Source: Escherichia coli (GTDB lineage: Bacteria; Pseudomonadota; Gammaproteobacteria; Enterobacterales; Enterobacteriaceae). From it: a DNA stretch of 64,000 bases. This document shows, piece by piece, positions 2,720-64,000 of this stretch; the first letter of the stretch is position 1, and the number at the start of each line of letters is the position of its first letter. A program made the position numbers and the translations under genes. Below the pieces are notes generated by a model, which searched no databases, was not told where the DNA came from, and saw nothing but the letters and a program-made list of their open reading frames with translations. The DNA lies in the NCBI RefSeq assembly GCF_046105845.1, contig NZ_CP151004.1; one strand, 5' to 3'.

Positions 2720-2925
2720 AAAAAAAAGCACCGCAATTAGGCGGTGCTACATTAATCACTATGGACAGACAGGGTAAATGTACAGGAAGTGAAAAAAGGT
2801 AGCTTTGCTACCATGGTCTGAATCGCAGACCAATTGCAAACACAACAACACAACATCACAACCGTAAGCCAAAAGTTCACCAGAACACGCATTCCGATAA
2901 AACTTTTCGTTCCGGCTCAGGAAGT
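2720..2925 (-). ncRNA. gcvB: GcvB small regulatory RNA (Hfq-dependent, represses amino-acid/peptide transporter mRNAs)
   Basis: Minus-strand sequence reads ACTTCCTGAGCCGGAACGAAAAGTTTTATCGGAATGCGTGTTCTGGTGAAC...TGTTGTGTTGTTGTGTTTGCAATTGG... (G/U-rich R1 region) and ends in hairpin GCACCGCCTAATTGCGGTGC plus U8; divergent from gcvA. Confidence 0.85.
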
Positions 2926-21144: not shown

Positions 21145-21510
21145 GTCGACAGGGAGTCAGACAACGAAGTGAACATCAGGATGATGACACTTCTGAAGGA
21201 CACACCAGGATGGTGTTTCAGGGAAAGGCTTCTGGATGAAGCGAAGAGGATGACGCAGGACGCGTTAAAGGACACCTCCAGGATGGAGAATGAGAACCGG
21301 TCAGGATGATTCGGTGGGTCAGGAAGGCCAGGGACACTTCAGGATGAAGTATCACATCGGGGTGGTGTGAGCAGGAAGCAATAGTTCAGGATGAACGATT
21401 GGCCGCAAGGCCAGAGGAAAAGTTGTCAAGGATGAGCAGGGAGCAACAAAAGTAGCTGGAATGCTGCGAAACGAACCGGGAGCACTGTGAATACAGTGCT
21501 CCCTTTTTTT
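21145..21510 (+). ncRNA. csrB: CsrB, CsrA-sequestering small RNA
   Basis: Starts GTCGACAGGGAGTCAGACAACGAAGTGAACATCAGGATGATGACAC; many CAGGATG/AGGA motifs in predicted loops; ends with a terminator. Confidence 0.9.
21478..21510 (+). terminator. rho-independent terminator of csrB
   Basis: gggagcactgtgaatacagtgctccc hairpin followed by ttttttt. Confidence 0.8.
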
Positions 21511-21555
21511 ATTCCTGCTATCCTTCGCGGCAGTTTTTCTTATTGAGGTTGCTTT

Positions 21556-39968: not shown

Positions 39969-40261
39969 TATAAATTTCTCATTAAATCTGGATAAATAAA
40001 TTGACGGCGGCATCGGTAATTTGAGATTCGTTATCATTAAAAACGAACACAGAAAAAATAAATATAAATTTGGTGAATGTTTTTGACATGATTAAATCCA
40101 TTTGCTTTATTTTCTTCTGACATAATACGTTACTCCCTTTAATTATTAACGATATGTTTCGCATTTTTCTTGAAACCTGCCTGTAACAGAATGTTAATAA
40201 GACATGATTGTTGTGGCAGGATCTGCAATAATTAACAATTATCCACTTCACAGAGAATGCT

Positions 40262-40933
40262 ATGCAGTACCCGATTAACGAGATGTTCCAGACCCTGCAA
40301 GGTGAGGGTTACTTTACCGGCGTCCCCGCTATTTTTATTCGTTTACAGGGATGCCCGGTTGGCTGTGCCTGGTGCGACACCAAACACACCTGGGAAAAGC
40401 TTGAGGATCGGGAAGTCTCCCTTTTCAGCATTCTGGGTAAAACGAAAGAGAGTGATAAGTGGGGAGCAGCAAGCAGTGAAGACTTACTCGCAGTCATCGG
40501 TCGTCAGGGATACACCGCGCGTCACGTGGTGATTACGGGTGGTGAACCTTGTATTCATGACTTGATGCCACTAACTGACCTGCTCGAAAAGAACGGTTTT
40601 AGCTGCCAGATCGAAACCAGTGGTACTCATGAAGTACGCTGCACACCGAATACCTGGGTTACCGTATCGCCAAAGCTGAACATGCGCGGCGGCTATGAAG
40701 TGTTGTCACAGGCACTGGAGCGAGCCAACGAAATCAAGCATCCAGTGGGACGCGTACGTGATATTGAAGCACTGGATGAACTTTTGGCGACGCTGACCGA
40801 TGATAAACCGCGAGTCATTGCACTGCAGCCGATTAGCCAAAAGGATGATGCCACACGTTTGTGCATTGAAACTTGCATTGCGCGTAACTGGCGTTTGTCG
40901 ATGCAAACACATAAATATTTAAATATTGCCTGA
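40262..40933 (+). CDS. queE: 7-carboxy-7-deazaguanine synthase QueE (radical SAM)
   Basis: 223 aa; radical-SAM cysteine cluster RLQGCPVGCAWCDTKH. Confidence 0.9.
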   Translation: MQYPINEMFQTLQGEGYFTGVPAIFIRLQGCPVGCAWCDTKHTWEKLEDREVSLFSILGKTKESDKWGAASSEDLLAVIGRQGYTARHVVITGGEPCIHDLMPLTDLLEKNGFSCQIETSGTHEVRCTPNTWVTVSPKLNMRGGYEVLSQALERANEIKHPVGRVRDIEALDELLATLTDDKPRVIALQPISQKDDATRLCIETCIARNWRLSMQTHKYLNIA

Positions 40934-41029
40934 TTACACATTTATATGCGTTATAAATGGGTGGAACCTGTAAAGACTTCCACTCATTTATATTTTTTGT
41001 CGCCTCTGAAAACTCATCCATTTTGCCCA

Positions 41030-41272
41030 TTCTGGACTAATCATTGTCATTCTCTACAAATTCTGTAGCGTTAATTTTTCTCTGGGGTGAAAATTATTAC
41101 GTCGGAGTTTGGTAGATTTTAGTTTGTATAGAGTTATTTTAAATATTTACCTTTTCAATCAATGGATTAAGTGCTCTTTAACATAATAGATGTGTTGTTT
41201 GTGTGATACTGTAAAGTTGGTAGATTGTGACTGGCTTAAAAAATCATTAATTAATAATAGGTTATGTTTAGA
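41030..41272 (+). promoter_or_regulatory. CRISPR leader (AT-rich; promoter and integration-host signals)
   Basis: AT-rich sequence ending ...tggtagattgtgactggcttaaaaaatcattaattaataataggttatgtttaga immediately before repeat 1; the degenerate repeat is at the opposite end of the array. Confidence 0.75.
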
Positions 41273-42643
41273 GAGTTCCCCGCGCCAGCGGGGATAAACC
41301 GTTGTCCTGCTGAACCAAGTAAGCCACTGACAAGAGTTCCCCGCGCCAGCGGGGATAAACCGCATTATATCCTGTGCGTCGTTCATTTATTTACGAGTTC
41401 CCCGCGCCAGCGGGGATAAACCGGCCGCCGCATGGCAAAACAAACATCGGGGTACGAGTTCCCCGCGCCAGCGGGGATAAACCGGAACGGCGGCTATACG
41501 GATTCGACAGGTCAGCGAGTTCCCCGCGCCAGCGGGGATAAACCGGATTGAATGCAGATGGTTCAATGCTCGCATTCGAGTTCCCCGCGCCAGCGGGGAT
41601 AAACCGCCACGCGTGCTTTGAGTGGATGGTGTCGCTTGGAGTTCCCCGCGCCAGCGGGGATAAACCGATACATTATTAAGCGGGCAATTTTTCCAGTTTG
41701 AGTTCCCCGCGCCAGCGGGGATAAACCGAACGGCACGGCCTGCCGCCACGTCCCGCAGCTGAGTTCCCCGCGCCAGCGGGGATAAACCGGGGCCGTGTTT
41801 TCTAACGGATTCGCACATTGCGAGTTCCCCGCGCCAGCGGGGATAAACCGCAGCAGTTCAATACTGAAATCAACATGCCGATGAGTTCCCCGCGCCAGCG
41901 GGGATAAACCGCGCGGTGGGGTTTCATTCGCATCAATTCAAGGGAGTTCCCCGCGCCAGCGGGGATAAACCGGCGGTGAGTGAGAAAATCAGGACGGCTG
42001 CGAGGAGTTCCCCGCGCCAGCGGGGATAAACCGCGCCAAATATGCTGGTGGACTTCTACGCCGATGAGTTCCCCGCGCCAGCGGGGATAAACCGCTATCG
42101 ACGGTCAAGAAAATCCACCGGAAGAAGAGTTCCCCGCGCCAGCGGGGATAAACCGGCAGCAATATATTTGACATAATAGATAACCCGGAGTTCCCCGCGC
42201 CAGCGGGGATAAACCGACGCCAGGGGAGATATAACGCGCCTGTTATGGGAGTTCCCCGCGCCAGCGGGGATAAACCGGTCTTAACTAAAAGATGACCATT
42301 CAGTCGCAGGAGTTCCCCGCGCCAGCGGGGATAAACCGCGGCCCATAATATTAATATAATCCACATGAGGGAGTTCCCCGCGCCAGCGGGGATAAACCGC
42401 GCCGGAAATCATCGTTCTGTAATTGTCTAGCGAGTTCCCCGCGCCAGCGGGGATAAACCGCCCTGTTTGTTATTCCCATTATACGTATAAGAGAGTTCCC
42501 CGCGCCAGCGGGGATAAACCGCTTCTGGCTGGAGGTGGAGAAACGGAGGCAATGAGTTCCCCGCGTTAGCGGGGATAAACCGGATTTAGAGAGCCAGACG
42601 TTGGTCAGTTATTCGAGTTCCCCGCGTCAGCGGGGATAACCAT
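41273..42643 (+). CRISPR. Type I-E CRISPR array, 23 repeats / 22 spacers
   Basis: 29-bp repeat GAGTTCCCCGCGCCAGCGGGGATAAACCG recurs at exactly 61-bp period from 41273 to 42615; 32-bp unique spacers; repeat 22 has C>T (GCGTTAGCGGGG); terminal repeat degenerate (GCGTCAGCGGGGATAACCA). Confidence 0.97.
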
Positions 42644-42655
42644 TCAGGTATGTTC

Positions 42656-42681
42656 AGGCCGGGCAGTTTCCCGCCCGGCCT
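42656..42681. terminator. GC hairpin between array end and ygcE stop (possible bidirectional terminator)
   Basis: aggccgggcagtttcccgcccggcct perfect stem-loop; no clear U-tract, so terminator function is uncertain. Confidence 0.4.
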
Positions 42682-42688
42682 TCCTCAC

Positions 42689-44167
42689 TTACGCATTCGA
42701 CCAGCTCTGGATCGAATCTTCATTCCCCAATTCCCCATGCATCACTTCATACGATTTTTTCAGGATCACATCAGTGTGTTTGGTTAGGTCTTTGAAAATG
42801 CCTTTATTCATCGCGTCGTAGCGTTTGGCGTTGCTCTCAACAGGCATAAAGATATCTTTCACGCGAACCATTTTGTCGACAGCCGTTGCGTAATCCGGGT
42901 ATAGCCCCAGACCTACCGCCGTATTAATCGCTGCCCCCAGGCTTGCACAACCATTAATGGCGTTACGGCGTGCCGGAAGGTTGAACACGTCGGCAAAAAT
43001 CTGCATAAACAGATCGCTGTTCGAACCGCCGCCAGTAATGATCACATGCTTTGCAAAGTGATTCATTTCATTACACATATTGTCGTAATTGTTCTTCAGC
43101 GTCAGCGCCACGCTTTCCAGTATCGAACGATATATCCATGCGTAATCCATGCTGGAATCAAAGCCGATCATAATCCCGCGTTTGTACGGTTCCCACGGAT
43201 TGGTCAGCCAGTCCAGCACCGTCATCAGACCATTACAGCCAGGCGGCACACAAGACGCTTTTTTGTTGAGCAAATCTTCCGGTGAAAGATCCTGTGCTTT
43301 GGCATCCTGAATTAACGACTCGCCTAACATGTCGCGTAGCCAGCTCACCGTCCACATGCCTTTGCGGATACCGTAACCTTCATACAGCAAGGTTTGTGGA
43401 ATAGAAGACATAATCGGCCAGTACGCTACCGGATCTTTCGGCAGTGCTTTGCCGTTCATCATCAACGCGATGTAAGTGCCAAGAGAAATTACCGCAGTTT
43501 CATCATCCAGTAACCCGGCTCCCAGTGCTTCTACCGGTTTATCACTGGTGGTACAAACAACCGGCAGCCCAGCCGGGAAATGTGTAGCCAGCGCGGCTTG
43601 AGGAGTGATATGCCCAAGAACAGTGCCCGGCATTTGCACATCAAACAGCATATGACGGGGGATATTAAACTTCTCCATGACTGCGGCATCTTCACTCCAT
43701 GCCCAGGTCTTATAATCCACCGGCCACTGACCAAAATAGTTGGCGATATTGTCTTTAAACTCGCCGGTTAAGCGATGCGTCAGATAACCTGAAAAAGAGG
43801 TGACATATGCCACGTCAGGATTCGTATGTTCGTAAGGGCGTGTAACGCGTGCATCCTGCCAGCTAATCAACGGCGCAGCTGGCGTGCCATCGGCTTTCAA
43901 TAACGCACGGCAGCAACGGATGGATCCCAGACCAATACCGACAATATCTTCTTTATTTCCGGCAAACTGACTCATCAAATCGTGACCGGCAAAACATAAT
44001 GATGCCCATAAATCGTCGTCAGGATGTTCTGCGGTATCGGCATCTGGCGTGTGCATCGGCTGTAATAAGCCTTTGCCTTCGCAAACCACGTTACCTTCCA
44101 GATCGTACATCACCACTTTTGTGCTCTGACTTCCGCCATCAATCCCTATGATGTATTTTTTCGACAT
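42689..44167 (-). CDS. ygcE: FGGY-family carbohydrate kinase YgcE (substrate unknown)
   Basis: 492 aa MSKKYIIGIDGGSQSTKVVMYD; FGGY N- and C-terminal domains. Confidence 0.85.
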   Translation of the reverse strand: MSKKYIIGIDGGSQSTKVVMYDLEGNVVCEGKGLLQPMHTPDADTAEHPDDDLWASLCFAGHDLMSQFAGNKEDIVGIGLGSIRCCRALLKADGTPAAPLISWQDARVTRPYEHTNPDVAYVTSFSGYLTHRLTGEFKDNIANYFGQWPVDYKTWAWSEDAAVMEKFNIPRHMLFDVQMPGTVLGHITPQAALATHFPAGLPVVCTTSDKPVEALGAGLLDDETAVISLGTYIALMMNGKALPKDPVAYWPIMSSIPQTLLYEGYGIRKGMWTVSWLRDMLGESLIQDAKAQDLSPEDLLNKKASCVPPGCNGLMTVLDWLTNPWEPYKRGIMIGFDSSMDYAWIYRSILESVALTLKNNYDNMCNEMNHFAKHVIITGGGSNSDLFMQIFADVFNLPARRNAINGCASLGAAINTAVGLGLYPDYATAVDKMVRVKDIFMPVESNAKRYDAMNKGIFKDLTKHTDVILKKSYEVMHGELGNEDSIQSWSNA

Positions 44168-51881: not shown

Positions 51882-52142
51882 TTATCCAAAACGGTAGGTG
51901 ATGCCGAATCCGGAAGGCGGATAGCGCCACTGTTGTAGTGTTGATTCGTCGCACAGCAAACGGCAGGTGCCACACTCCAGGCAGCCGCGATAATCAACGC
52001 GTAAGTCACCTTCCGGTGTGAGCGAAAAAAGACCAGCCGGACAAGCGTTAATCAACCGTTGTACCGTCTGGCGCTCAACGGAGTCAGCCGGAACAATGTG
52101 CGGCGCATCGGCAACGCGCCAGAGATTACGGGCTACAGACAT
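51882..52142 (-). CDS. ygcO: ferredoxin-like protein YgcO (FixX-like)
   Basis: ORF trimmed to MSVARNLW (86 aa); Cys motif CLECGTCRLLC; overlaps ygcN 3' end. Confidence 0.75.
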   Translation of the reverse strand: MSVARNLWRVADAPHIVPADSVERQTVQRLINACPAGLFSLTPEGDLRVDYRGCLECGTCRLLCDESTLQQWRYPPSGFGITYRFG

Positions 52143-53404
52143 CGCAGACTCCTGATAACATCGCCCGCCAGATGCCACAGGCCGTGACGACGTAAATGAC
52201 GCCAGAGCAACTGGCGCAGCGGCGGAACAGGTTTATCACCCTGATCCCATAAATCACGGGAAATATCCTGCATTAACGCAGGCCACGCCCGATACCAGCC
52301 AGGGCGTTGCAAAAGCGCCGGAACATGCTGATAACGTTGTAGAACATCCCATAGCAGGCTGCGCTCGACGTTGTGATGATAAAGCGCAAACAGATTTTGC
52401 GGCTCGCGGTGCTGGCAGGCGCTTATCAGCGTTTGTGCCGCCGCCTGCGCGCCAGTTAGCGCCATATCCATGCCGCGCACGGAAATTCCGGTATTGACGC
52501 AACTGCGCAACGCATCGCCCACCAGCAGCCAGCCGTTACCGGCGTATTGCACCGGCATACTGTGCAAGCCACCTTCTGGCACCAGATGCGCACCATACTC
52601 CAGTGATTCCGTGTTTTTGATAAGCGGGCGCACTGCCGGATGCGTTTTAAAGCGAGCCAGCAGCTCGCTTGCCGGAACACGACTTTGCGTAAGGGAAGAG
52701 AGCGGGCAAACAATCCCTAACGAGAGCGTTTGTTGATTAGTATAAAGAAATGCGCCGCCGGGTAAGTCATCACAGATTCCGCCGCTGAACAGCAACGCTG
52801 CGCCTTCGTTATTCTCCAGATGAAAACGTTCTTCAATAGCGGATGTTTCCAGCGACAGCACTTCTTTGATCCCCAACGCCATCGCTTCGCCAGCAGGACG
52901 AGTCACTAACCCGTGACGCTCAGCCAGGACGCTGTTGGCACCTTCTGCCAGCACCACATAACGGGCGCGGAGAATATCGTCACCACAAATGACACCACAC
53001 ACCATGCCGTTTTCTTCATACAGCGCATCCACCGTCGCACCGGGGATGCATTCGACACCTTCTTTTTCGGCTTCGGCAACCAGCCACGGATCGAACCGTG
53101 CACGTAATACACTCCAGGATTCACCGCCGGGCTGTAAGCTGGAAAACGTCGTTGCGCCATCCGGCGTTAACAGGGAAAGGCTTTCGTGAGTGATGCGTCG
53201 TTCAAGAGGCGCGGTCAGATGAAATTGTGGGAGGAGTTCCGCGAGCGCCTGGGTATATAAACGCCCGCCGGAAAGATTTTTGCTGCCGGGGATTTCAGCG
53301 CGTTCCAGTAACAAAACGGATAAACCTGCCCGCGCGCAGCGTAAAGCACAAGCGGTGCCTGCTATACCCGCACCAATAATAATAATGTCGCAGTCGTCTT
53401 CCAT
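52133..53404 (-). CDS. ygcN: FAD-dependent oxidoreductase YgcN (FixC / ETF-quinone oxidoreductase-like)
   Basis: ORF trimmed to MEDDCDIIIIGAGIAGTACA (GxGxxG FAD fold), 423 aa. Confidence 0.8.
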   Translation of the reverse strand: MEDDCDIIIIGAGIAGTACALRCARAGLSVLLLERAEIPGSKNLSGGRLYTQALAELLPQFHLTAPLERRITHESLSLLTPDGATTFSSLQPGGESWSVLRARFDPWLVAEAEKEGVECIPGATVDALYEENGMVCGVICGDDILRARYVVLAEGANSVLAERHGLVTRPAGEAMALGIKEVLSLETSAIEERFHLENNEGAALLFSGGICDDLPGGAFLYTNQQTLSLGIVCPLSSLTQSRVPASELLARFKTHPAVRPLIKNTESLEYGAHLVPEGGLHSMPVQYAGNGWLLVGDALRSCVNTGISVRGMDMALTGAQAAAQTLISACQHREPQNLFALYHHNVERSLLWDVLQRYQHVPALLQRPGWYRAWPALMQDISRDLWDQGDKPVPPLRQLLWRHLRRHGLWHLAGDVIRSLRCL

Positions 53405-53481
53405 GTCGTGCCCCATATATCCAGAGCGCAACACCCTAACATAGCGTTACTTAAGGGAAATTGACCGCCGACACACTCTTA

Positions 53482-53847
53482 TCATTCGCCGCGATAGATG
53501 CAACCTGCGGTGCAGGTTTCTTTCACCATAACCGCACTTAACAGCGGAACAACCGGTTTAACCTGATCCCAAATCCATTTTGCTAAAACCTCGCTGGTCG
53601 GGTTTTCCAGACCTGGAATATCATTGAGATAATGGTGATCGAGGCGCTCATAAGTTGGCTTAAACGCCGCTTTCAGTTCAGCGAAATCGATAATCCAGCC
53701 CGTATGCGGATCGACTTCCCCGGTAATTTCCAGTCGCACCATAAAGGAATGCCCGTGCAGGCGACCACATTTATGCCCTTCCGGGACGTGTGGTAAGCGG
53801 TGAGCGGCTTCGAAGGTGAAATCTTTAAATAACGTGGTGGACATCAT
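53482..53847 (-). CDS. queD: 6-carboxy-5,6,7,8-tetrahydropterin synthase QueD
   Basis: ORF trimmed to [35 protein letters not shown] (121 aa); Zn-binding His/Cys of the PTPS fold. Confidence 0.85.
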
Positions 53848-53931
53848 AATTTCTCTACAGGACGATAAAACCGCCGTAGAGTACCGGAAAGGCTGTTTTT
53901 TCGCATTATCTAAAACGACTTTGTTGCGCAA

Positions 53932-54162
53932 AATCGCTGATTTATCTTAATGATTGGCTAAATTCATTTGTTTTTCATTGGGTTGGTTAATCTGTTTTGT
54001 TGTTAAAGACTATTGCTAAAACAGGTTAGTCGATTTGGTTATTAGTTATCGCTATCCCGTCTTTAATCCACACCGTTCACCCCGTTAACCTTACCTTCTC
54101 TTCTGTTTTATGGGCGCTGACAGGGCGCAGAAACAGCTTTGCTTACTGGAACATAACGACGC
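53932..54162 (+). promoter_or_regulatory. cysJIH promoter region (CysB-dependent in E. coli)
   Basis: AT-rich 230 bp upstream of cysJ; specific CysB sites not resolved by eye. Confidence 0.45.
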
Positions 54163-55962
54163 ATGACGACACAGGTCCCACCTTCCGCGTTGCTTCCGTT
54201 GAACCCGGAGCAACTGGCACGCCTTCAGGCGGCCACGACCGATTTAACTCCTACCCAGCTTGCCTGGGTTTCTGGCTATTTCTGGGGCGTGCTCAACCAG
54301 CAGCCTGCTGCGCTTGCAGCGACGCCAGCGCCCGCCGCAGAAATGCCGGATATAACTATTATCTCCGCTTCGCAAACCGGCAATGCGCGCCGGGTTGCTG
54401 AAGCATTACGCGATGATTTATTAGCGGCAAAACTGAACGTTAAGCTGGTGAACGCGGGCGACTATAAATTCAAACAAATCGCCAGCGAAAAACTGCTCAT
54501 CGTGGTGACGTCAACGCAAGGGGAAGGGGAACCGCCGGAAGAAGCCGTCGCGCTGCATAAGTTCCTGTTCTCCAAAAAAGCGCCAAAGCTGGAAAACACT
54601 GCATTTGCCGTGTTTAGCCTCGGCGATAGCTCTTATGAATTTTTCTGCCAGTCCGGGAAAGATTTTGACAGCAAGCTGGCGGAACTGGGCGGTGAACGCC
54701 TGCTCGACCGTGTCGATGCCGACGTTGAATACCAGGCTGCTGCCATCGAGTGGCGCGCCCGCGTGGTTGATGCGCTTAAATCGCGTGCGCCTGTCGCGGC
54801 ACCTTCGCAATCCGTCGCTACTGGCGCGGTAAATGAAATCCACACCAGCCCGTACAGCAAAGACGCGCCGCTGGTGGCGAGCCTCTCTGTTAACCAGAAA
54901 ATTACCGGGCGTAACTCTGAAAAAGACGTTCGCCATATCGAAATTGACTTAGGTGACTCTGGCCTGCGTTACCAGCCGGGTGACGCGCTGGGCGTCTGGT
55001 ATCAGAACGATCCGGCACTGGTGAAAGAACTTGTCGAACTGCTGTGGCTGAAAGGCGATGAAACTGTCACCGTTGACGGCAAAACGCTGACCCTGAGCGA
55101 AGCGCTACAGTGGCACTTTGAACTCACCGTCAACACCGCGAATATTGTTGAGAACTACGCCACGCTTACCCGCAGCGAAACGCTGCTGCCGCTGGTGGGC
55201 GATAAAGCCAAGTTACAGCATTACGCCGTGACCACGCCGATTGTTGACATGGTGCGTTTCTCTCCGGCGCAACTGGATGCCGAAGCGCTGATTAACCTGC
55301 TGCGCCCGCTGACCCCGCGCCTGTATTCCATCGCCTCCTCGCAGGCGGAAGTCGAGAACGAAGTACACGTTACCGTTGGTGTGGTGCGTTACGACGTGGA
55401 AGGCCGCGCCCGTGCCGGTGGTGCCTCCAGTTTCCTCGCGGACCGTGTGGAAGAAGAGGGCGAAGTCCGCGTCTTTATCGAACATAACGATAACTTCCGC
55501 CTGCCAGCCAATCCGGAAACGTCGGTGATTATGATTGGCCCAGGCACCGGCATCGCGCCGTTCCGCGCCTTTATGCAGCAACGCGCCGCCGACGAAGCGT
55601 CGGGGAAAAACTGGCTGTTCTTTGGCAACCCGCACTTTACGGAAGATTTCCTCTACCAGGTGGAATGGCAGCGCTACGTCAAAGAGGGCGTGCTGACGCG
55701 TATCGATCTTGCCTGGTCGCGCGATCAAAAAGAAAAAATTTACGTACAAGACAAACTGCGCGAACAGGGCGCGGAGCTGTGGCGCTGGATCAATGACGGT
55801 GCCCACATTTATGTCTGCGGCGACGCTAATCGCATGGCGAAAGACGTTGAGCAGGCACTTCTGGAAGTGATTGCCGAATTTGGTGGCATGGACACCGAAG
55901 CGGCGGATGAATTTTTAAGTGAGCTGCGCGTAGAGCGCCGTTATCAGCGAGATGTCTACTAA
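54163..55962 (+). CDS. cysJ: sulfite reductase [NADPH] flavoprotein alpha-component CysJ
   Basis: 599 aa; flavodoxin-like FMN domain plus FAD/NADPH ferredoxin-reductase domain. Confidence 0.95.
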
Positions 55963-57674
55963 TGAGCGAAAAACATCCAGGGCCTTTAGTGGTCGAAGGA
56001 AAACTGACAGACGCCGAGCGCATGAAGCTTGAAAGCAACTACCTGCGCGGCACCATTGCGGAAGATTTAAACGACGGTCTGACCGGTGGTTTTAAGGGCG
56101 ACAACTTCCTGCTGATCCGCTTCCACGGCATGTATCAGCAGGATGACCGCGACATCCGCGCCGAACGTGCTGAACAGAAGCTGGAGCCACGTCATGCAAT
56201 GCTGTTGCGCTGTCGTCTGCCGGGTGGGGTGATTACCACCAAACAGTGGCAGGCGATCGATAAATTTGCCGGTGAAAACACCATCTATGGCAGCATTCGC
56301 CTGACCAACCGCCAGACGTTTCAGTTTCACGGCATTCTGAAAAAGAACGTCAAACCGGTGCACCAGATGCTGCACTCGGTCGGTCTTGATGCGCTGGCGA
56401 CCGCCAACGATATGAACCGTAACGTGCTGTGCACTTCGAACCCTTACGAGTCGCAGTTGCACGCGGAAGCATATGAATGGGCGAAGAAAATCTCTGAACA
56501 TCTGCTGCCACGTACCCGCGCGTATGCGGAGATCTGGCTCGATCAGGAAAAAGTCGCCACTACTGATGAAGAGCCGATCCTTGGTCAGACCTACCTGCCG
56601 CGTAAGTTCAAAACCACGGTAGTGATCCCGCCGCAGAACGATATCGATCTGCACGCCAACGACATGAACTTCGTGGCGATCGCCGAAAACGGCAAGCTGG
56701 TGGGCTTTAACCTGCTGGTGGGCGGTGGGCTTTCCATCGAGCACGGCAACAAGAAGACCTACGCCCGCACGGCGAGTGAGTTTGGTTATCTGCCGCTGGA
56801 GCATACGCTAGCGGTGGCGGAAGCCGTCGTGACAACTCAGCGTGACTGGGGTAACCGAACCGATCGTAAAAATGCCAAAACCAAATACACGCTGGAGCGC
56901 GTGGGGGTTGAGACGTTTAAAGCGGAAGTGGAGCGTCGCGCGGGGATCAAATTTGAACCGATCCGTCCGTATGAGTTTACCGGACGCGGCGATCGTATTG
57001 GCTGGGTTAAGGGCATTGATGATAACTGGCACCTGACGCTGTTTATCGAAAATGGTCGCATCCTTGATTATCCTGGGCGTCCGCTGAAAACCGGCCTGCT
57101 GGAGATCGCGAAGATCCACAAAGGCGATTTCCGCATTACGGCGAACCAGAATCTAATCATCGCCGGTGTGCCGGAAAGCGAGAAAGCGAAGATCGAGAAG
57201 ATCGCCAAAGAGAGCGGGTTAATGAATGCCGTCACGCCGCAGCGTGAAAACTCAATGGCCTGCGTGTCATTCCCGACTTGCCCGCTGGCGATGGCGGAAG
57301 CAGAGCGTTTCCTGCCGTCTTTTATCGACAACATCGATAATTTAATGGCGAAACATGGTGTCAGCGATGAGCATATCGTGATGCGTGTAACAGGCTGCCC
57401 GAACGGTTGTGGTCGCGCGATGCTGGCGGAAGTGGGCCTGGTGGGTAAAGCGCCGGGTCGCTACAACCTGCATCTTGGCGGCAACCGCATTGGGACACGT
57501 ATCCCACGGATGTATAAAGAAAACATCACCGAGCCGGAAATCCTGGCGTCGCTTGATGAACTGATAGGGCGCTGGGCGAAAGAGCGCGAAGCGGGTGAAG
57601 GCTTCGGCGACTTTACGGTGCGTGCGGGCATCATTCGCCCGGTGCTCGATCCGGCGCGGGATTTGTGGGATTAA
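55962..57674 (+). CDS. cysI: sulfite reductase [NADPH] hemoprotein beta-component CysI
   Basis: 570 aa; siroheme/4Fe-4S cysteines ([19 protein letters not shown]); ATG overlaps cysJ stop. Confidence 0.95.
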
Positions 57675-57690
57675 CCATCAGCCCGGTCTT

Positions 57691-57730
57691 GTAGGCCTGA
57701 TAAGACGTGTGAGCGTCGCATCAGGCAAGG
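57691..57730. repeat. REP element between cysI and cysH
   Basis: gtaggcctgataagacgtgtgagcgtcgcatcaggcaagg. Confidence 0.55.
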
Positions 57731-57747
57731 CAAACAGTGAGGAATCT

Positions 57748-58482
57748 ATGTCCAAACTCGATCTAAACGCCCTGAACGAACTGCCGAAGGTAGATCGCAT
57801 TCTGGCGCTGGCGGAAACTAACGCCGAACTGGAAAAACTGGACGCTGAAAGCCGCGTTGCCTGGGCGCTGGATAATCTGCCCGGTGAATATGTACTTTCT
57901 TCCAGCTTTGGCATTCAGGCGGCGGTGAGCCTGCATCTGGTGAATCAGATTCACCCGGATATCCCGGTGATCCTGACCGATACGGGTTATCTGTTTCCGG
58001 AAACCTACCGCTTTATTGACGAGTTAACGGACAAACTCAAGCTCAACCTGAAAGTGTACCGTGCTACCGAAAGCGCCGCCTGGCAGGAAGCGCGCTACGG
58101 CAAACTGTGGGAGCAGGGTGTTGAAGGCATTGAAAAGTACAATGACATCAACAAAGTCGAACCAATGAACCGGGCGCTGAAAGAACTGAATGCGCAAACC
58201 TGGTTTGCTGGCCTGCGCCGTGAACAATCCGGCAGCCGCGCCAATTTACCGGTGCTGGCAATTCAGCGTGGCGTATTTAAAGTGCTGCCGATTATCGACT
58301 GGGATAACCGAACTATTTATCAGTACCTGCAAAAGCATGGCCTGAAATATCACCCATTATGGGACGAAGGATATTTATCGGTGGGCGATACCCATACAAC
58401 CCGTAAATGGGAACCCGGCATGGCGGAAGAAGAAACGCGTTTCTTTGGCTTAAAAAGGGAATGTGGGTTACACGAAGGGTAA
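57748..58482 (+). CDS. cysH: phosphoadenosine phosphosulfate (PAPS) reductase CysH
   Basis: ORF 57595 trimmed to [23 protein letters not shown] (244 aa); C-terminal ECGLH catalytic Cys motif. Confidence 0.9.
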
Positions 58483-58840
58483 ATATTGCCGGATAAATTA
58501 AACGCCTCTGTCAGAAATGATGGGGGCGTTTTTATTTTGCGAGCAGCATTCCTGATTTTAAACGTGAACGCCGCTGGAAGAATCAACAGGTATATAATGG
58601 TGTCGGGTGCTTGAGGCTGTCTGGCGTTAAGCATTCGCGAGGTTCCAGATGGACAAAAGCCCCAGGCGATATTTCTATCAACCTGAGGCCAGCGTTCGAA
58701 CCCAAACAATTCGAATGTTAGTCTCTTCTTTGCAGGGAGGCAAGACATGTGTATATCACTGTAATTCGATATTTATGAGCAGCATCGAAAAATAGTCCAC
58801 TGATATCATCGATAATACTAAAAAAACAGGGAGGCTATTA

Positions 58841-61507
58841 ATGGAACCTTTTAAATATATATGTCATTACTGGGGGAAATCCTCAAAAAGCCTGACGAAA
58901 GGAAATGATATTCATCTGTTGATTTATCATTGCCTGGATGTTGCAGCTGTTGCAGATTGCTGGTGGGATCAATCAGTCGTACTACAAAATGCTTTTTGCC
59001 GAAATGAAATGCTATCAAAACAGAAGGTGAAAGCCTGGCTGTTATTTTTCATTGCCCTTCATGATATCGGAAAGTTTGATATACGATTCCAATATAAATC
59101 AGCAGAAAGTTGGCTGAAATTAAATCCTGCAACGCCATCACTTAATGGTCCATCAACACAAATGTGCCGTAAATTTAATCATGGTGCAGCCGGTCTGTAT
59201 TGGTTTAACCAGGATTCACTTTCAGAGCAATCTCCCGGGGATTTTTTCAGTTTTTTTGATGCCGCTCCTCATCCTTATGAGTCCTGGTTTCCATGGGTAG
59301 AGGCCGTTACAGGACATCATGGTTTTATATTACATTCCCAGGATCAAGATAAGTCGCGTTGGGAAATGCCAGCTTCTCTGGCATCTTATGCTGCGCAAGA
59401 TAAACAGGCTCGTGAGGAGTGGATATCTGTACTCGAAGCATTATTTTTAACGCCAGCTGGGTTATCTATAAACGATATACCACCTGATTGTTCATCACTG
59501 TTAGCAGGTTTTTGCTCGCTTGCTGACTGGTTAGGTTCCTGGACCACAACGGATACCTTTCTATTCAAAGAAGATGCACCTTCAGGCATACAAGCGCTAA
59601 GAACATATTTTCAGTATAGACAACAGGATGCGTGTCGGGTACTGGAGTTGAGTGGCCTTGTATCAAATAAGCGTAGTTATGACGGCGTACATGCCTTACT
59701 GGACAATGGCTATCAACCAAGACAATTACAGGTGTTGGTTGATGCTCTTCCTACAGCTCCCGGGCTGACGGTGATTGAGGCACCTACGGGATCAGGTAAA
59801 ACCGAAACAGCGCTGGCCTATGCCTGGAAACTTATTGACCAACAACTTGCGGAGAGTGTTATTTTTGCCCTCCCTACACAAGCTACTGCAAATGCAATGC
59901 TCAGTAGAATGGAAGCGAACGCGAGCCGTTTATTTACCTCCCCAAATCTTATTCTTGCTCATGGTAATTCACGTTTTAACCACCTTTTTCAATCAATAAA
60001 ATCACGCGCATTTACTGAGCAGGGGCAAGAAGAAGCATGGGTTCAGTGTTGCCAATGGTTGTCACAAAGTAATAAGAAAGTGTTTCTAGGGCAAATAGGC
60101 GTTTGCACGATTGATCAGGTATTGATATCGGTATTGCCAGTTAAACATCGCTTTATCCGTGGTTTGGGAATTGGTCGAAGTATTTTAATTGTTGATGAAG
60201 TTCATGCTTACGACACGTATATGAACGGCTTGCTGGAGGCTGTGCTCAAGGCTCAGGCTGATGTGGGAGGGAGTGTTATTCTTCTTTCCGCAACTCTACC
60301 AATGAAACAAAAACAGAAACTTCTGGATACTTATGGTCTGCATACAGATCCAGAGGAAAATAACTCCGCATATCCACTCATTAACTGGCGAGGTGTGAAT
60401 GGTGCACAACGTTTTGATCTGTTAGCTCATCCAGAACAACTCCCGCCCCGCTTTTCGATTCGGCCAGAACCTATTTATTTAGCTGACATGTTACCTGACC
60501 TTAGGATGTTAGAGCGAATGATCGCAGCGGCAAATGCGGGTGCACAAGTCTGTCTTATCTGCAATTTGGTTGATGTTGCACAACTATGCCACCAACGGTT
60601 AAAGGAACTAAATAACACGCAAGTAGATATAGATTTGTTTCATGCGCGCTTTACGCTGAACGATCGTCGTGAAAAAGAGAATCGAGTTATTAGCAATTTC
60701 GGCAAAAATGGGAAGCGAAATGTTGGACGGATACTTGTCGCCACCCAGGTCGTGGAACAATCACTCGACGTTGATTTTGATTGGTTAATTACTCAGCATT
60801 GCCCCGCAGATTTACTTTTCCAACGATTGGGCCGTTTACATCGCCATCATCGCAAATATCGTCCCGCTGGTTTTGAGGTTCCTCTTGCCACCGTTTTGCT
60901 GCCTGATGGCGAAGGTTACGGACGACATGAGCATATTTATAGCAACGTTAGAGTCATGTGGCGGACGCAGCAACATATTGAGGAACTTAATGGAGCATCC
61001 TTATTTTTCCCCGATGCCTACCGGCAATGGCTGGATAGCATTTACGATGATGCTGAAATGGATGAGCCAGAATGGGTCATCAAAGGCATGGATAAGTTTG
61101 AAAGCGCTGAGTGTGAAAAGAGGTTCAAGGCTCGCAAGGTTCTGCAGTGGGCTGAAGAATATAGCTTGCAGGATAACGATGAAACAATTCTTGCGGTAAC
61201 GAGGGATGGGGAAATGAGCCTGCCATTATTGCCTTATTTACAAACGTCTTCAGGTAAACAACTGCTCGATGGCCAGGTCTACGAGGACCTAAGTCATGAA
61301 CAGCAGTATGAGGCGTTAGCACTTAATCGCGTCAATGTACCCTTCACCTGGAAACGTAATTTTTCTGAAGTAGTAGATGAAGATGGGTTACTTTGGCTGG
61401 AAGGGAAACAGAATCAGAATGGATGGATCTGGCAGGGTAATAATATTGTTATTACCTACACTCGGGATGAAGGGATGACCAGAGTCATCCCTGCAAATCC
61501 CAAATAA
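58841..61507 (+). CDS. cas3: CRISPR-associated nuclease/helicase Cas3 (type I-E)
   Basis: 888 aa; HD nuclease motif (FIALHDIGKFD), SF2 helicase Walker A (EAPTGSGKTETAL) and DEAH-type box (LIVDEVHAYD). Confidence 0.95.
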   Translation: MEPFKYICHYWGKSSKSLTKGNDIHLLIYHCLDVAAVADCWWDQSVVLQNAFCRNEMLSKQKVKAWLLFFIALHDIGKFDIRFQYKSAESWLKLNPATPSLNGPSTQMCRKFNHGAAGLYWFNQDSLSEQSPGDFFSFFDAAPHPYESWFPWVEAVTGHHGFILHSQDQDKSRWEMPASLASYAAQDKQAREEWISVLEALFLTPAGLSINDIPPDCSSLLAGFCSLADWLGSWTTTDTFLFKEDAPSGIQALRTYFQYRQQDACRVLELSGLVSNKRSYDGVHALLDNGYQPRQLQVLVDALPTAPGLTVIEAPTGSGKTETALAYAWKLIDQQLAESVIFALPTQATANAMLSRMEANASRLFTSPNLILAHGNSRFNHLFQSIKSRAFTEQGQEEAWVQCCQWLSQSNKKVFLGQIGVCTIDQVLISVLPVKHRFIRGLGIGRSILIVDEVHAYDTYMNGLLEAVLKAQADVGGSVILLSATLPMKQKQKLLDTYGLHTDPEENNSAYPLINWRGVNGAQRFDLLAHPEQLPPRFSIRPEPIYLADMLPDLRMLERMIAAANAGAQVCLICNLVDVAQLCHQRLKELNNTQVDIDLFHARFTLNDRREKENRVISNFGKNGKRNVGRILVATQVVEQSLDVDFDWLITQHCPADLLFQRLGRLHRHHRKYRPAGFEVPLATVLLPDGEGYGRHEHIYSNVRVMWRTQQHIEELNGASLFFPDAYRQWLDSIYDDAEMDEPEWVIKGMDKFESAECEKRFKARKVLQWAEEYSLQDNDETILAVTRDGEMSLPLLPYLQTSSGKQLLDGQVYEDLSHEQQYEALALNRVNVPFTWKRNFSEVVDEDGLLWLEGKQNQNGWIWQGNNIVITYTRDEGMTRVIPANPK

Positions 61508-61921
61508 CTTCGGGAATGATTGGTATCAATGACGATAACAAGACCAATAACGGTTTATCCCTACTTAAGTAGGGAAGGTGCACAATGTACATCTTCTTTT
61601 AATTTCCCGGTATGAGATTTTATATTCACAGTATGAATATTTTATGTAATAAAATTCATGGTGATTATTATAACTAAAAATTTCTTTGATAATAAAACGA
61701 ATAACTTGCAGATTTGAAATGCATGCATTATTGTCTTTAAACAATTCAACACATCTTAATATATGCATAGGTTAATTGTATTAAACCAATGGATATATTT
61801 TTGCAGTGAATGTGATTATTGAATTAATTACGCCGTATTTTTTCTTTGTTTTTACCGATAACGGAAGTGTGCCGACGTATAGAAATGCAGGAGAAATGTC
61901 GGAGCATATGAAGGAGAACAA
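61508..61921 (+). promoter_or_regulatory. cas3-cse1 intergenic region containing the Cascade operon promoter (Pcas)
   Basis: 414 bp, strongly AT-rich, non-coding, directly upstream of cse1; in E. coli K-12 this region is H-NS-silenced and LeuO-activated (established knowledge; exact promoter elements not mapped here). Confidence 0.6.
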
Positions 61922-63430
61922 ATGAATTTGCTTATTGATAACTGGATCCCTGTACGCCCGCGAAACGGGGGGAAAGTCCAAATCATAAATCTGCAATCGC
62001 TATACTGCAGTAGAGATCAGTGGCGATTAAGTTTGCCCCGTGACGATATGGAACTGGCCGCTTTAGCACTGCTGGTTTGCATTGGGCAAATTATCGCCCC
62101 GGCAAAAGATGACGTTGAATTTCGACATCGCATAATGAATCCGCTCACTGAAGATGAGTTTCAACAACTCATCGCGCCGTGGATAGATATGTTCTACCTT
62201 AATCACGCAGAACATCCCTTTATGCAGACCAAAGGTGTCAAAGCAAATGATGTGACTCCAATGGAAAAACTGTTGGCTGGGGTAAGCGGCGCGACGAATT
62301 GTGCATTTGTCAATCAACCGGGGCAGGGTGAAGCATTATGTGGTGGATGCACTGCGATTGCGTTATTCAACCAGGCGAATCAGGCACCTGGTTTTGGTGG
62401 TGGCTTTAAAAGCGGTTTACGTGGAGGAACACCTATAACCACCTTCGTATGTGGGATCGATCTTCGCTCGACGGTGTTACTCAATGTCCTCACAATACCT
62501 CGTCTTCAAAAACAATTTCCCAATGAATCAAATACGGAAAACCAACCTACCTGGATTAAGCCTGTCAAGCCCAATGAATCTGTGCCAGCTTCGTCAATTG
62601 GGTTTGTCCGTGGCTTATTCTGGCAACCAGCGCATATTGAATTATGCGATCCCATTGGGATTGGTAAATGTTCTTGCTGTGGACAGGAAAGCAATTTGCG
62701 TTATACAGGTTTTCTTAAGGAAAAATTTACCTTTACAGTTAATGGGCTATGGCCCCATCCGCATTCCCCTTGTCTGGTAACAGTCAAGAAAGGGGAGGTT
62801 GAGGAAAAATTTCTTGCTTTCACCACCTCCGCACCATCATGGACACAAATCAGCCGAGTTGTGGTAGATAAGATTATTCAAAATGAAAATGGAAATCGCG
62901 TGGCGGCGGTTGTGAATCAATTCAGAAATATTGCGCCGCAAAGTCCTCTTGAATTGATTATGGGGGGATATCGTAATAATCAAGCATCTATTCTTGAACG
63001 GCGTCATGATGTGTTGATGTTTAATCAGGGGTGGCAACAATACGGCAATGTGATAAACGAAATAGTGACTGTTGGTTTGGGATATAAAACAGCCTTACGC
63101 AAGGCGTTATATACCTTTGCAGAAGGGTTTAAAAATAAAGACTTCAAAGGGGCCGGAGTCTCTGTTCATGAGACTGCAGAAAGGCATTTCTATCGACAGA
63201 GTGAATTATTAATTCCCGATGTACTGGCGAATATTAATTTTTCCCAAGCTGATGAGGTAATAGCTGATCTACGAGACAAACTTCATCAATTGTGTGAAAT
63301 GCTATTTAATCAATCTGTAGCTCCCTATGCACATCATCCTAAATTAATAAGCACATTAGCGCTTGCCCGCGCCACGCTATACAAACATTTACGGGAGTTA
63401 AAACCGCAAGGAGGGTCATCAAATGGCTGA
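61922..63430 (+). CDS. casA: Cascade large subunit Cse1 (CasA, Cas8e)
   Basis: 502 aa MNLLIDNWIPVRPRNGGKVQIINLQSLYCSRDQWRLSLPRDD, recognised as E. coli Cse1. Confidence 0.95.
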   Translation: MNLLIDNWIPVRPRNGGKVQIINLQSLYCSRDQWRLSLPRDDMELAALALLVCIGQIIAPAKDDVEFRHRIMNPLTEDEFQQLIAPWIDMFYLNHAEHPFMQTKGVKANDVTPMEKLLAGVSGATNCAFVNQPGQGEALCGGCTAIALFNQANQAPGFGGGFKSGLRGGTPITTFVCGIDLRSTVLLNVLTIPRLQKQFPNESNTENQPTWIKPVKPNESVPASSIGFVRGLFWQPAHIELCDPIGIGKCSCCGQESNLRYTGFLKEKFTFTVNGLWPHPHSPCLVTVKKGEVEEKFLAFTTSAPSWTQISRVVVDKIIQNENGNRVAAVVNQFRNIAPQSPLELIMGGYRNNQASILERRHDVLMFNQGWQQYGNVINEIVTVGLGYKTALRKALYTFAEGFKNKDFKGAGVSVHETAERHFYRQSELLIPDVLANINFSQADEVIADLRDKLHQLCEMLFNQSVAPYAHHPKLISTLALARATLYKHLRELKPQGGSSNG

Positions 63431-63905
63431 TGAAATTGATGCAATAGCTTTATATCGAGCCTGGCAACAACTGGATAATGGAGCATGTGCGCAAATTAGA
63501 CGTGTTTCAGAACCTGATGAATTACGCGATATCCCTGCGTTTTATAGGCTGGTGCAACCTTTTGGTTGGGAAAACCCACGTCACCAGCAGGCTCTTTTGC
63601 GCATGGTGTTTTGCCTGAGCGCAGGAAAGAATGTCATCCGACATCAGGACAAAAAACCGGAGCAAATAACAGGTATCTCGTTGGGAAGAGCTTTAGCCAA
63701 TAGTGGAAGAATTAACGAGCGCCGTATCTTTCAATTAATTCGGGCTGACAGAACAGCCGATATGGTCCAGTTACGTCGATTACTTACTCACGCCGAACCC
63801 GTACTTGACTGGCCATTAATGGCCAGGATGTTGACCTGGTGGGGAAAGCGCGAACGCCAGCAACTTCTGGAAGATTTTGTATTGACCACAAACAAAAATG
63901 CGTAA
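63423..63905 (+). CDS. casB: Cascade small subunit Cse2 (CasB, Cas11)
   Basis: 160 aa MADEIDAIALYRAWQQLDNGACAQIRR; 8-bp overlap with casA. Confidence 0.9.
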   Translation: MADEIDAIALYRAWQQLDNGACAQIRRVSEPDELRDIPAFYRLVQPFGWENPRHQQALLRMVFCLSAGKNVIRHQDKKPEQITGISLGRALANSGRINERRIFQLIRADRTADMVQLRRLLTHAEPVLDWPLMARMLTWWGKRERQQLLEDFVLTTNKNA

Positions 63906-63917
63906 GGAAACCTTTCT

Positions 63918-64000
63918 ATGTCTAACTTTATCAATATTCATGTTCTGATCTCTCACAGCCCTTCATGTCTGAACCGCGACGATATGAACATGCAGAAAGA
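63918..64000 (+). CDS. casC: Cascade backbone subunit Cas7e (CasC, Cse4), N-terminal fragment cut by window end
   Basis: [27 protein letters not shown] opens at 63918 with RBS aggaaa upstream; continues beyond the window. Confidence 0.8.

Follow-up and report, generated by a model that had tools for sequence, protein, structure and literature searches.

Results

The queE–ygcE locus

The window, that is the whole stretch of 64,000 nucleotides of Escherichia coli DNA analysed in this work, carries a CRISPR array on the + strand between queE (ygcF) and ygcE, with an AT-rich leader between queE and the first repeat. The K-12-type I-E cas genes begin 16 kb downstream of the array, inside the window (58841-63905), where the first three of them are found in full length. 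The features and the spacers for which a source was found are listed in Table 1. The gap between repeat 23 and the stop codon of ygcE is only 45 bp.

Table 1. Features of the CRISPR-II locus and of the cas region in the window, with the targets of the matched spacers (identities over 32 nt; PAM as found beside the protospacer)
Feature	Coordinates	Strand	Remarks
queE (ygcF)	40262..40933	+	Upstream neighbour; NCBIfam TIGR04322 QueE, 368 bits, above cutoff; queE in homologous loci
CRISPR-II leader	40934..41272	+	339 bp, AT-rich; 30.7% GC against 50.3% for the window
CRISPR array	41273-42643	+	23 repeats, 22 spacers
Spacer 2	41363..41394	+	icd-integrated prophage, tape-measure/gpU junction; 32/32; GAG PAM
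Spacer 3	41424..41455	+	icd-integrated prophage, P2 gpI-like baseplate gene; 30/32; AAA at PAM site
Spacer 8	41729..41760	+	traI (relaxase) of F-type plasmids; 32/32 in pE2865-3; GAG PAM
Spacer 10	41851..41882	+	Hypothetical gene of a conjugative Klebsiella oxytoca megaplasmid; 30/32; AAG PAM
Spacer 15	42156..42187	+	icd-integrated prophage, gpW-like baseplate gene; 30/32; ATG PAM
Spacer 16	42217..42248	+	Hypothetical gene of ~35-kb conjugative IncN plasmids; 32/32; AAG PAM
Spacer 17	42278..42309	+	IncHI1 plasmids such as R27 and pHCM1; 32/32; AAG PAM
Spacer 18	42339..42370	+	icd-integrated prophage, gpU/superinfection-immunity region; 31/32; AAG PAM
Spacer 20	42461..42492	+	~76-kb MOBF/MPF_F conjugative E. 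coli plasmids; 30/32; ATG PAM
Repeat 22	42554..42582	+	Variant with GCGTTAGCG; CC>TT at 42566-42567, in the hairpin loop
Spacer 22 (oldest)	42583..42614	+	Diverged match to F-type traD; 28/32; AAG PAM
Repeat 23	42615..42643	+	Degenerate terminal repeat GAGTTCCCCGCGTCAGCGGGGATAACCAT, 4 mismatches
ygcE	42689..44167	-	Downstream neighbour, FGGY-family sugar kinase; open reading frame; ygcE in homologous loci
cas3	58841..61507	+	NCBIfam PRK09694 Cas3, 1601 bits, full length; first gene of the cas operon
cse1/casA	61922..63430	+	NCBIfam PRK09693, 904 bits, full length; ~98% identical to K-12 CasA (PDB 4QYZ_A)
cse2/casB	63423..63905	+	TIGR02548, full length; ~97% identical to K-12 CasB (PDB 4QYZ_B)

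Repeats and spacers

A preliminary description of this DNA had counted 23 repeats at an exact 61-bp period and 22 unique spacers of 32 nt, and these figures are confirmed, as are the first and last spacer sequences that it quoted. The 29-bp repeat GAGTTCCCCGCGCCAGCGGGGATAAACCG is present in 21 exact copies from position 41273 and in a 22nd copy with two mismatches, and these 22 matches compare with none in 100 dinucleotide-preserving shuffles. The same description had presented the two repeats of highest coordinate as mutated; repeat 23 is indeed degenerate, but repeat 22, to which a single C>T had been attributed, carries two. It had also named the extremes of spacer composition, rightly for spacer 8, the richest in GC (75%), but not for spacer 18 (38% GC), since the most AT-rich is spacer 7 (31% GC).

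The repeat is predicted to fold into a 7-bp stem with a tetraloop (-15.1 kcal/mol, z = -3.6), followed by the handle AUAAACCG. As both changes in repeat 22 are located in the tetraloop, the predicted stem would remain intact in this copy. Repeat 23 has its homologue in the last repeat of the K-12 CRISPR2.2 remnant, which adjoins ygcE. Tandem Repeats Finder flagged a similarity between spacers 11 and 12 and between spacers 15 and 18, which may reflect shared base composition, and the terminator-like matches returned by a scan were mostly repeat hairpins.

The cas genes

From cas3 to casB the DNA is collinear with K-12 and 96.8% identical to it, and by their sequences the cas genes belong to the E2 (K-12-type) variant as opposed to the divergent E1 variant (PMC3903273). 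Positions 51922-64000 of the window (12 kb) are found with 100% identity in a public contig (GCA_044249515.1), which is presumed to come from the same genome. This contig continues with cas7, cas5, cas6e, cas1 and cas2, all of K-12 lengths, and then with a CRISPR-I array of 22 spacers. Counting this contig, all eight cas genes are intact.

Comparison with other E. coli arrays

The CRISPR-II locus of the E. coli I-E system consists either of one array (CRISPR2.2-3) or of two arrays, CRISPR2.3 and CRISPR2.2, separated by 0.5 kb (PMC3903273), and when there are two, the leader adjoins CRISPR2.3 (Almendros et al., 2014; PMC3903273). The array described here occupies the ygcE-ygcF (queE) site, has the conserved leader 2.3 on its queE side and is uninterrupted. 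On both sides of it the window is collinear with K-12, and the flanks are 96.8-97.3% identical to MG1655; this homology extends to the end of repeat 1 and restarts inside repeat 23. The MG1655 CRISPR-II locus is similar in its chromosomal position, its leader, its repeat family, its spacer length and period, its degenerate terminal repeat adjoining ygcE and its E2 cas genes 16-19 kb away, but it has six spacers, repeats of the GTGTT type and a 503-bp segment of 28% GC between CRISPR2.3 and a two-repeat CRISPR2.2. The window has instead 22 different spacers, none of them common to the two loci, and repeats of the GAGTT type, and it lacks the 503-bp segment. The absence of this segment, together with the interruption of K-12 homology between repeat 1 and repeat 23, shows that the array has the undivided CRISPR2.2-3 form. 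The preliminary description had remarked that the array is longer than that of K-12 and that the strain is probably not MG1655; the six MG1655 spacers bear out the first point and the flank identity the second.

Among 5,426 complete E. coli genomes, the flanks that come closest to those of the window reach 99.0% identity. The strains concerned (among them O7:H15 ST70, WP4-S18-ESBL-07 and M114) have the same uninterrupted architecture, GAGTT-type repeats and a terminal repeat abutting ygcE, but their arrays comprise four spacers, none of which is found in the window, and their repeats have the loop variant GCGCGAGCG. The K-12 CRISPR-I array (CRISPR2.1, which adjoins cas2) has the same 29-bp consensus repeat, GAGTT..., and a rare GCGTTAGCG variant near its trailer end. 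It differs by its locus, by its position next to the cas genes and by its leader, of which only the repeat-proximal motif is shared.

A repeat with a hairpin and a handle, unique spacers of 32 nt, a 61-bp period, cas genes and PAMs on the 5' side (see below) are thus found together. The assignment to type I-E proposed in the preliminary description agrees with the E. coli I-E repeat and its fold and with the full-length cas3, cse1 and cse2 of the window. We are confident that this is an E. coli type I-E CRISPR-II array in the undivided CRISPR2.2-3 form. That the repeats could be of another interspersed kind (REP/BIME-like), or an assembly artefact, and not CRISPR at all, is so improbable as to be negligible. 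This idea could appeal to the Rfam search at gathering score, which returned no CRISPR family match in 40200-43200 or in the whole window, a result that we attribute to the content of Rfam and that has no bearing on the identity of the array. It is contradicted by the exact 61-bp periodicity and the unique spacers, by the spacers that match mobile elements next to PAMs, by the presence of the identical array in independent assemblies, and by RefSeq, which in thousands of E. coli genomes annotates the homologous queE-ygcE stretch as "CRISPR".

Leader and reading direction

The leader is identical to the K-12 CRISPR-II leader at 316 of 339 positions (93%), including all of the last 62 nt, and it has in common with the K-12 CRISPR-I leader the motif TTGGT.G.TTGT...TTTAGA. 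The IHF consensus is matched exactly at 41157-41169 and with two mismatches at 41242-41254, and a scan of the leader for the sigma-70 consensus found no + strand site. Pougach et al. reportedly mapped the promoters of the K-12 CRISPR cassettes in 2010. The leader presumably holds the promoter of the pre-crRNA and the signals for integration by Cas1-Cas2 and IHF.

All 10 protospacers found are in + orientation, and nine of them have an interference-proficient I-E PAM directly on the 5' side. The AAG and ATG motifs that had been suggested beforehand account for five and two of these PAMs, respectively, and GAG for the other two. For the seven protospacers found first the probability of such a pattern of orientation and PAMs arising by chance is about 4e-9. 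The 3' flanks have no comparable motif: read in reverse orientation, one of the seven checked has a canonical PAM.

The left-to-right reading with the leader on the queE side, as first proposed in the preliminary description, is therefore supported by four independent kinds of observation: the leader homology, the degenerate repeats at the ygcE end, the repeat itself, which is in crRNA sense on the + strand (GAGTT...ATAAACCG, PAM side), and the 5' PAMs. In the opposite reading the leader would be next to ygcE, and the spacers near 42614 would be the newest. We found nothing in favour of this reading and consider it all but refuted, since it would leave nine of 10 protospacers with a PAM on the wrong side and one canonical PAM among seven reverse flanks, would place the degenerate repeats next to the leader and the homologue of the known leader at the distal end, and disagrees with related CRISPR-I arrays, in which the shared spacers are at the equivalent distal end.

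Spacers matching conjugative plasmids

A source was found for 10 of the 22 spacers, six of which match conjugative plasmids and four a single prophage family. The variation in spacer composition had been taken beforehand as a sign of several source replicons, and the matches indeed involve at least four plasmid families in addition to the prophage family. For spacer 8, matches at 80-100% identity occur on plasmids of 3,211 of the 5,426 complete E. coli genomes.

Spacers matching the icd-integrated prophage

The prophage is a temperate phage integrated at icd. Its early, terminase and portal genes resemble those of lambda, and its contractile tail resembles that of P2. When IMG/VR was scanned for exact copies of the spacer 2 core, one 41-kb prophage contig was found, and the matches of spacers 2, 3, 15 and 18 were obtained by a mismatch-tolerant search over 14 kb of IMG/VR prophage contig. 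Most of the prophage, with the CI repressor at one end and the attachment site at the other, was reconstructed via identical proteins in public assemblies. The four protospacers all map in the tail module and none in the early or head regions. In addition, spacers 14 and 16 of the GCA_044249515.1 CRISPR-I array match the prophage perfectly, with AAG PAMs; with the four spacers of the present array, six spacers in the GCA_044249515.1 genome are thus directed against one phage family. Primed adaptation requires working Cascade and Cas3, and six prophage spacers distributed over two arrays form a pattern typical of this process.

Spacer 3 is the one whose extant protospacers lack a proficient PAM. 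In type I-E systems the final base of each repeat derives from the PAM (PMC3497052). The array has a G at the PAM-derived position, so the original protospacer of spacer 3 probably had an AAG, and the AAA of the extant prophage copies could be the result of drift or of PAM escape. Other E. coli arrays target the same region: a widespread spacer of opposite strand overlaps the spacer 3 protospacer over 23 nt, and a spacer of ATCC 8739 overlaps the spacer 2 protospacer with a 5-nt offset and an AGG PAM. CRISPR spacers that match the targeted tail region are present in 93 complete E. coli genomes, but none of the 5,426 has the region itself.

Spacers without a match

No source was found for twelve of the 22 spacers. 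The preliminary description had pointed to phages, plasmids and E. coli genomes, including the window itself, as possible targets. This was fruitful for plasmids and for the prophage, but the phage genome collection gave no match with any of the 22 spacers (blastn, E<=1), and there are no self-targets in the window outside the array at up to eight mismatches. Scans of IMG/VR in which a mismatch was allowed at every sixth position found nothing for spacers 1, 4, 5, 7, 18 and 19, nor did an exact 23-mer scan with the core of spacer 3. Spacers 3 and 18 were missed in these scans because the extant prophage differs from them at other positions. No match was found for spacer 1 in a metagenome scan, or for the spacer 3 core and spacer 18 in species-representative genomes. 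The 17 contigs returned by a metagenome scan with the spacer 3 core were without exception E. coli CRISPR arrays with the opposite-strand spacer, and none held a protospacer.

Distribution of the allele

Two metagenome contigs carry the identical 22-spacer allele, with flanks that share 99.46% and 99.96% identity with the window; none of the 5,426 complete E. coli genomes has it. These copies were traced via a spurious ORF of 143 aa that crosses the array; a look-up by the exact YgcE protein gave contigs of unrelated strains with different arrays. The presence of the same allele in the two contigs shows that it is real, stable and already in public data. Of the 22 spacers, only spacers 4 and 18 are present in the arrays of other complete E. 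coli genomes, at non-homologous positions: spacer 4 is the sixth of 14 spacers in strain ECO2947, and in strain 14EC047 spacer 18 comes first in an array that otherwise resembles that of K-12. This recurrence fits either an independent capture of the protospacer or an exchange between arrays.

Discussion

In this work we assigned a source to nearly half of the spacers of an E. coli CRISPR-II array. It documents past contacts with conjugative plasmids and with one temperate phage family. By analogy with K-12, the leader on the queE side would drive transcription of the + strand, Cas6e would cut each repeat at the 3' base of the hairpin, and the resulting 61-nt crRNAs would each comprise the handle AUAAACCG, one spacer of 32 nt and the hairpin of the repeat. 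Once loaded with such a crRNA, Cascade would recognize spacer-matching DNA with a PAM of the 5'-AAG type and recruit Cas3 for its degradation. By the same analogy, Cas1-Cas2, with IHF, would insert new spacers at repeat 1; insertion at the leader-proximal repeat would make spacer 1 (41302) the newest and spacer 22 the oldest. Given the identity of the leader and repeats with those of K-12, we infer that the array can be transcribed and processed by Cas6e, and the analogy extends to interference at the present day, which may operate in this strain. If the system is expressed, interference would be expected with spacers 2, 8, 16 and 17, which have perfect targets with proficient PAMs, while spacers 10, 15 and 22, which have mismatches in the seed, would at most prime adaptation.

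The I-E cas operon of K-12 is silenced by H-NS (reviewed in PMC3497052). The array could therefore be a genuine I-E array that is now a silent fossil, a memory of old encounters in a strain that keeps cas repressed, as K-12 does, and no longer acquires spacers, and we give this a little less than an even chance. The cas genes are of the very variant that is silenced by H-NS in K-12. Moreover, three independent sources have exactly the same 22-spacer allele, and the flanks of one of them diverge by 0.5%; this speaks against a continued acquisition of spacers here. The older spacers have drifted from their extant targets, with four mismatches for spacer 22 and two each for spacers 10, 15 and 20, and F-type plasmids that offer spacer 8 a perfect target are extremely common in E. 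coli. Several properties of the locus do not sit well with a fossil: the 21 functional repeats are identical, and the clone-mate contig has all eight cas genes in intact form; spacers 2, 8, 16 and 17 match extant elements perfectly; the six spacers against one prophage look like the product of primed adaptation; and the CRISPR-I array of a related contig has gained one spacer at its leader end.

At the other extreme, the I-E system of this lineage could have been naturally active, including for primed adaptation, against the icd prophage family and several of the plasmid families, and such immunity might exclude these elements. We regard this as unlikely. If it were true, the array would be a natural barrier to the spread of F, IncHI1 and IncN plasmids, and no fossil.

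The locus, the repeat, the leader, the cas partners and the mechanism are among the best studied in CRISPR biology, and arrays of this kind, as well as this allele, are already known. The map of spacers to targets, six on plasmids and four on a prophage, is a useful annotation and not a discovery. Its modest interest lies in the spacers themselves, as one natural array carries perfect guides against F-type traI and against IncHI1 and IncN plasmids, and the traI target of spacer 8 is present on plasmids of more than half of the complete E. coli genomes. Whether the chromosomal I-E system of E. coli ever gives real immunity has long been debated, and this strain is a convenient natural test case for asking whether it does so against resistance plasmids and temperate phages.

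Structure and surroundings of the CRISPR-II array

Coordinates of the features discussed here are collected in the table. Two of them are spurious open reading frames, the longer of which is among public gene calls; for that reason it can be used as an exact-match handle for the spacer allele, and the 22-spacer allele was located elsewhere in this way.

Features of the window and of contig L047
Feature	Location	Strand	Remarks
CRISPR-I array, 22 spacers	L047:15676-17046		public contig identical to window 51922-64000
Spurious ORF, 143 aa	window 41387-41818	-	crosses the CRISPR-II array
Spurious ORF, 125 aa	window 41989-42366	-	crosses the CRISPR-II array
GC-rich inverted repeat	window 42657-42680		GGCCGGGC-agtttccc-GCCCGGCC
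sok antitoxin RNA (hok/sok family)	window 58605-58761	+	Rfam, 103.7 bits
CsrB small RNA	window 21154-21513	+	Rfam gathering score
GcvB small RNA	window 2720-2925	-	Rfam gathering score

Near the trailer of the CRISPR-II array lies the rare repeat variant GAGTTCCCCGCGTTAGCGGGGATAAACCG (repeat 22, window 42554-42582); in K-12 CRISPR-I, the third repeat from the end (MG1655 record, position 2877851) has exactly this sequence. The strains whose flanks are most similar to those of the window (99.0%; L005:4393-4665, L006 and L007) differ in having a 4-spacer array with the loop variant GCGCGAGCG, as opposed to GCGCCAGCG, and they carry GCGCGAGCG in every non-terminal repeat. Spacer S18 is at position 18 in the window array (42339-42370) but is the leader-proximal spacer in strain 14EC047 (L003:3001-3032), whose 6-spacer array is otherwise K-12-like and has S18 in place of the first spacer of K-12. 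These differing positions suggest either that the same protospacer was captured independently or that the arrays recombined.

The inverted repeat takes up most of the 45 bp separating the last repeat from the ygcE stop codon, and it may terminate transcription of ygcE, of the array, or of both. A consensus terminator scan made no call at this position, because the inverted repeat has no T-run. The sok RNA directly precedes cas3 and occupies the place that sokX has in K-12. CsrB and GcvB are ordinary E. coli genes.

Companion CRISPR-I array and spacers against the icd-integrated prophage

The related metagenome contig L050 (11596-12966) carries the same CRISPR-I array as L047 with one additional leader-end spacer and one additional internal spacer, and the more distant relative L048 shares with L047 only the four at the trailer end and a single internal one. 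The differences among the three show the polarity that is classic for spacers gained in nature.

Spacers 14 and 16 of the L047 CRISPR-I array match the icd-integrated prophage perfectly, with AAG PAMs, in the tape-measure gene and a tail-fibre-like gene. Counted together with the four CRISPR-II spacers of the window, which is presumed to come from the same genome as L047, this makes six spacers directed at a single phage family. Among complete E. coli genomes, 93 have CRISPR spacers that match a 3.4-kb tail region of this prophage (IMG/VR prophage contig L014:7000-10400; also L035-L046), and at megablast sensitivity the region itself is carried by none of 5,426 complete E. coli genomes. The prophage is present in many draft and SRA assemblies: the index of the collection lists its tail-sheath protein in 179 blocks. 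Spacers against the tail region and the region itself may be negatively associated.
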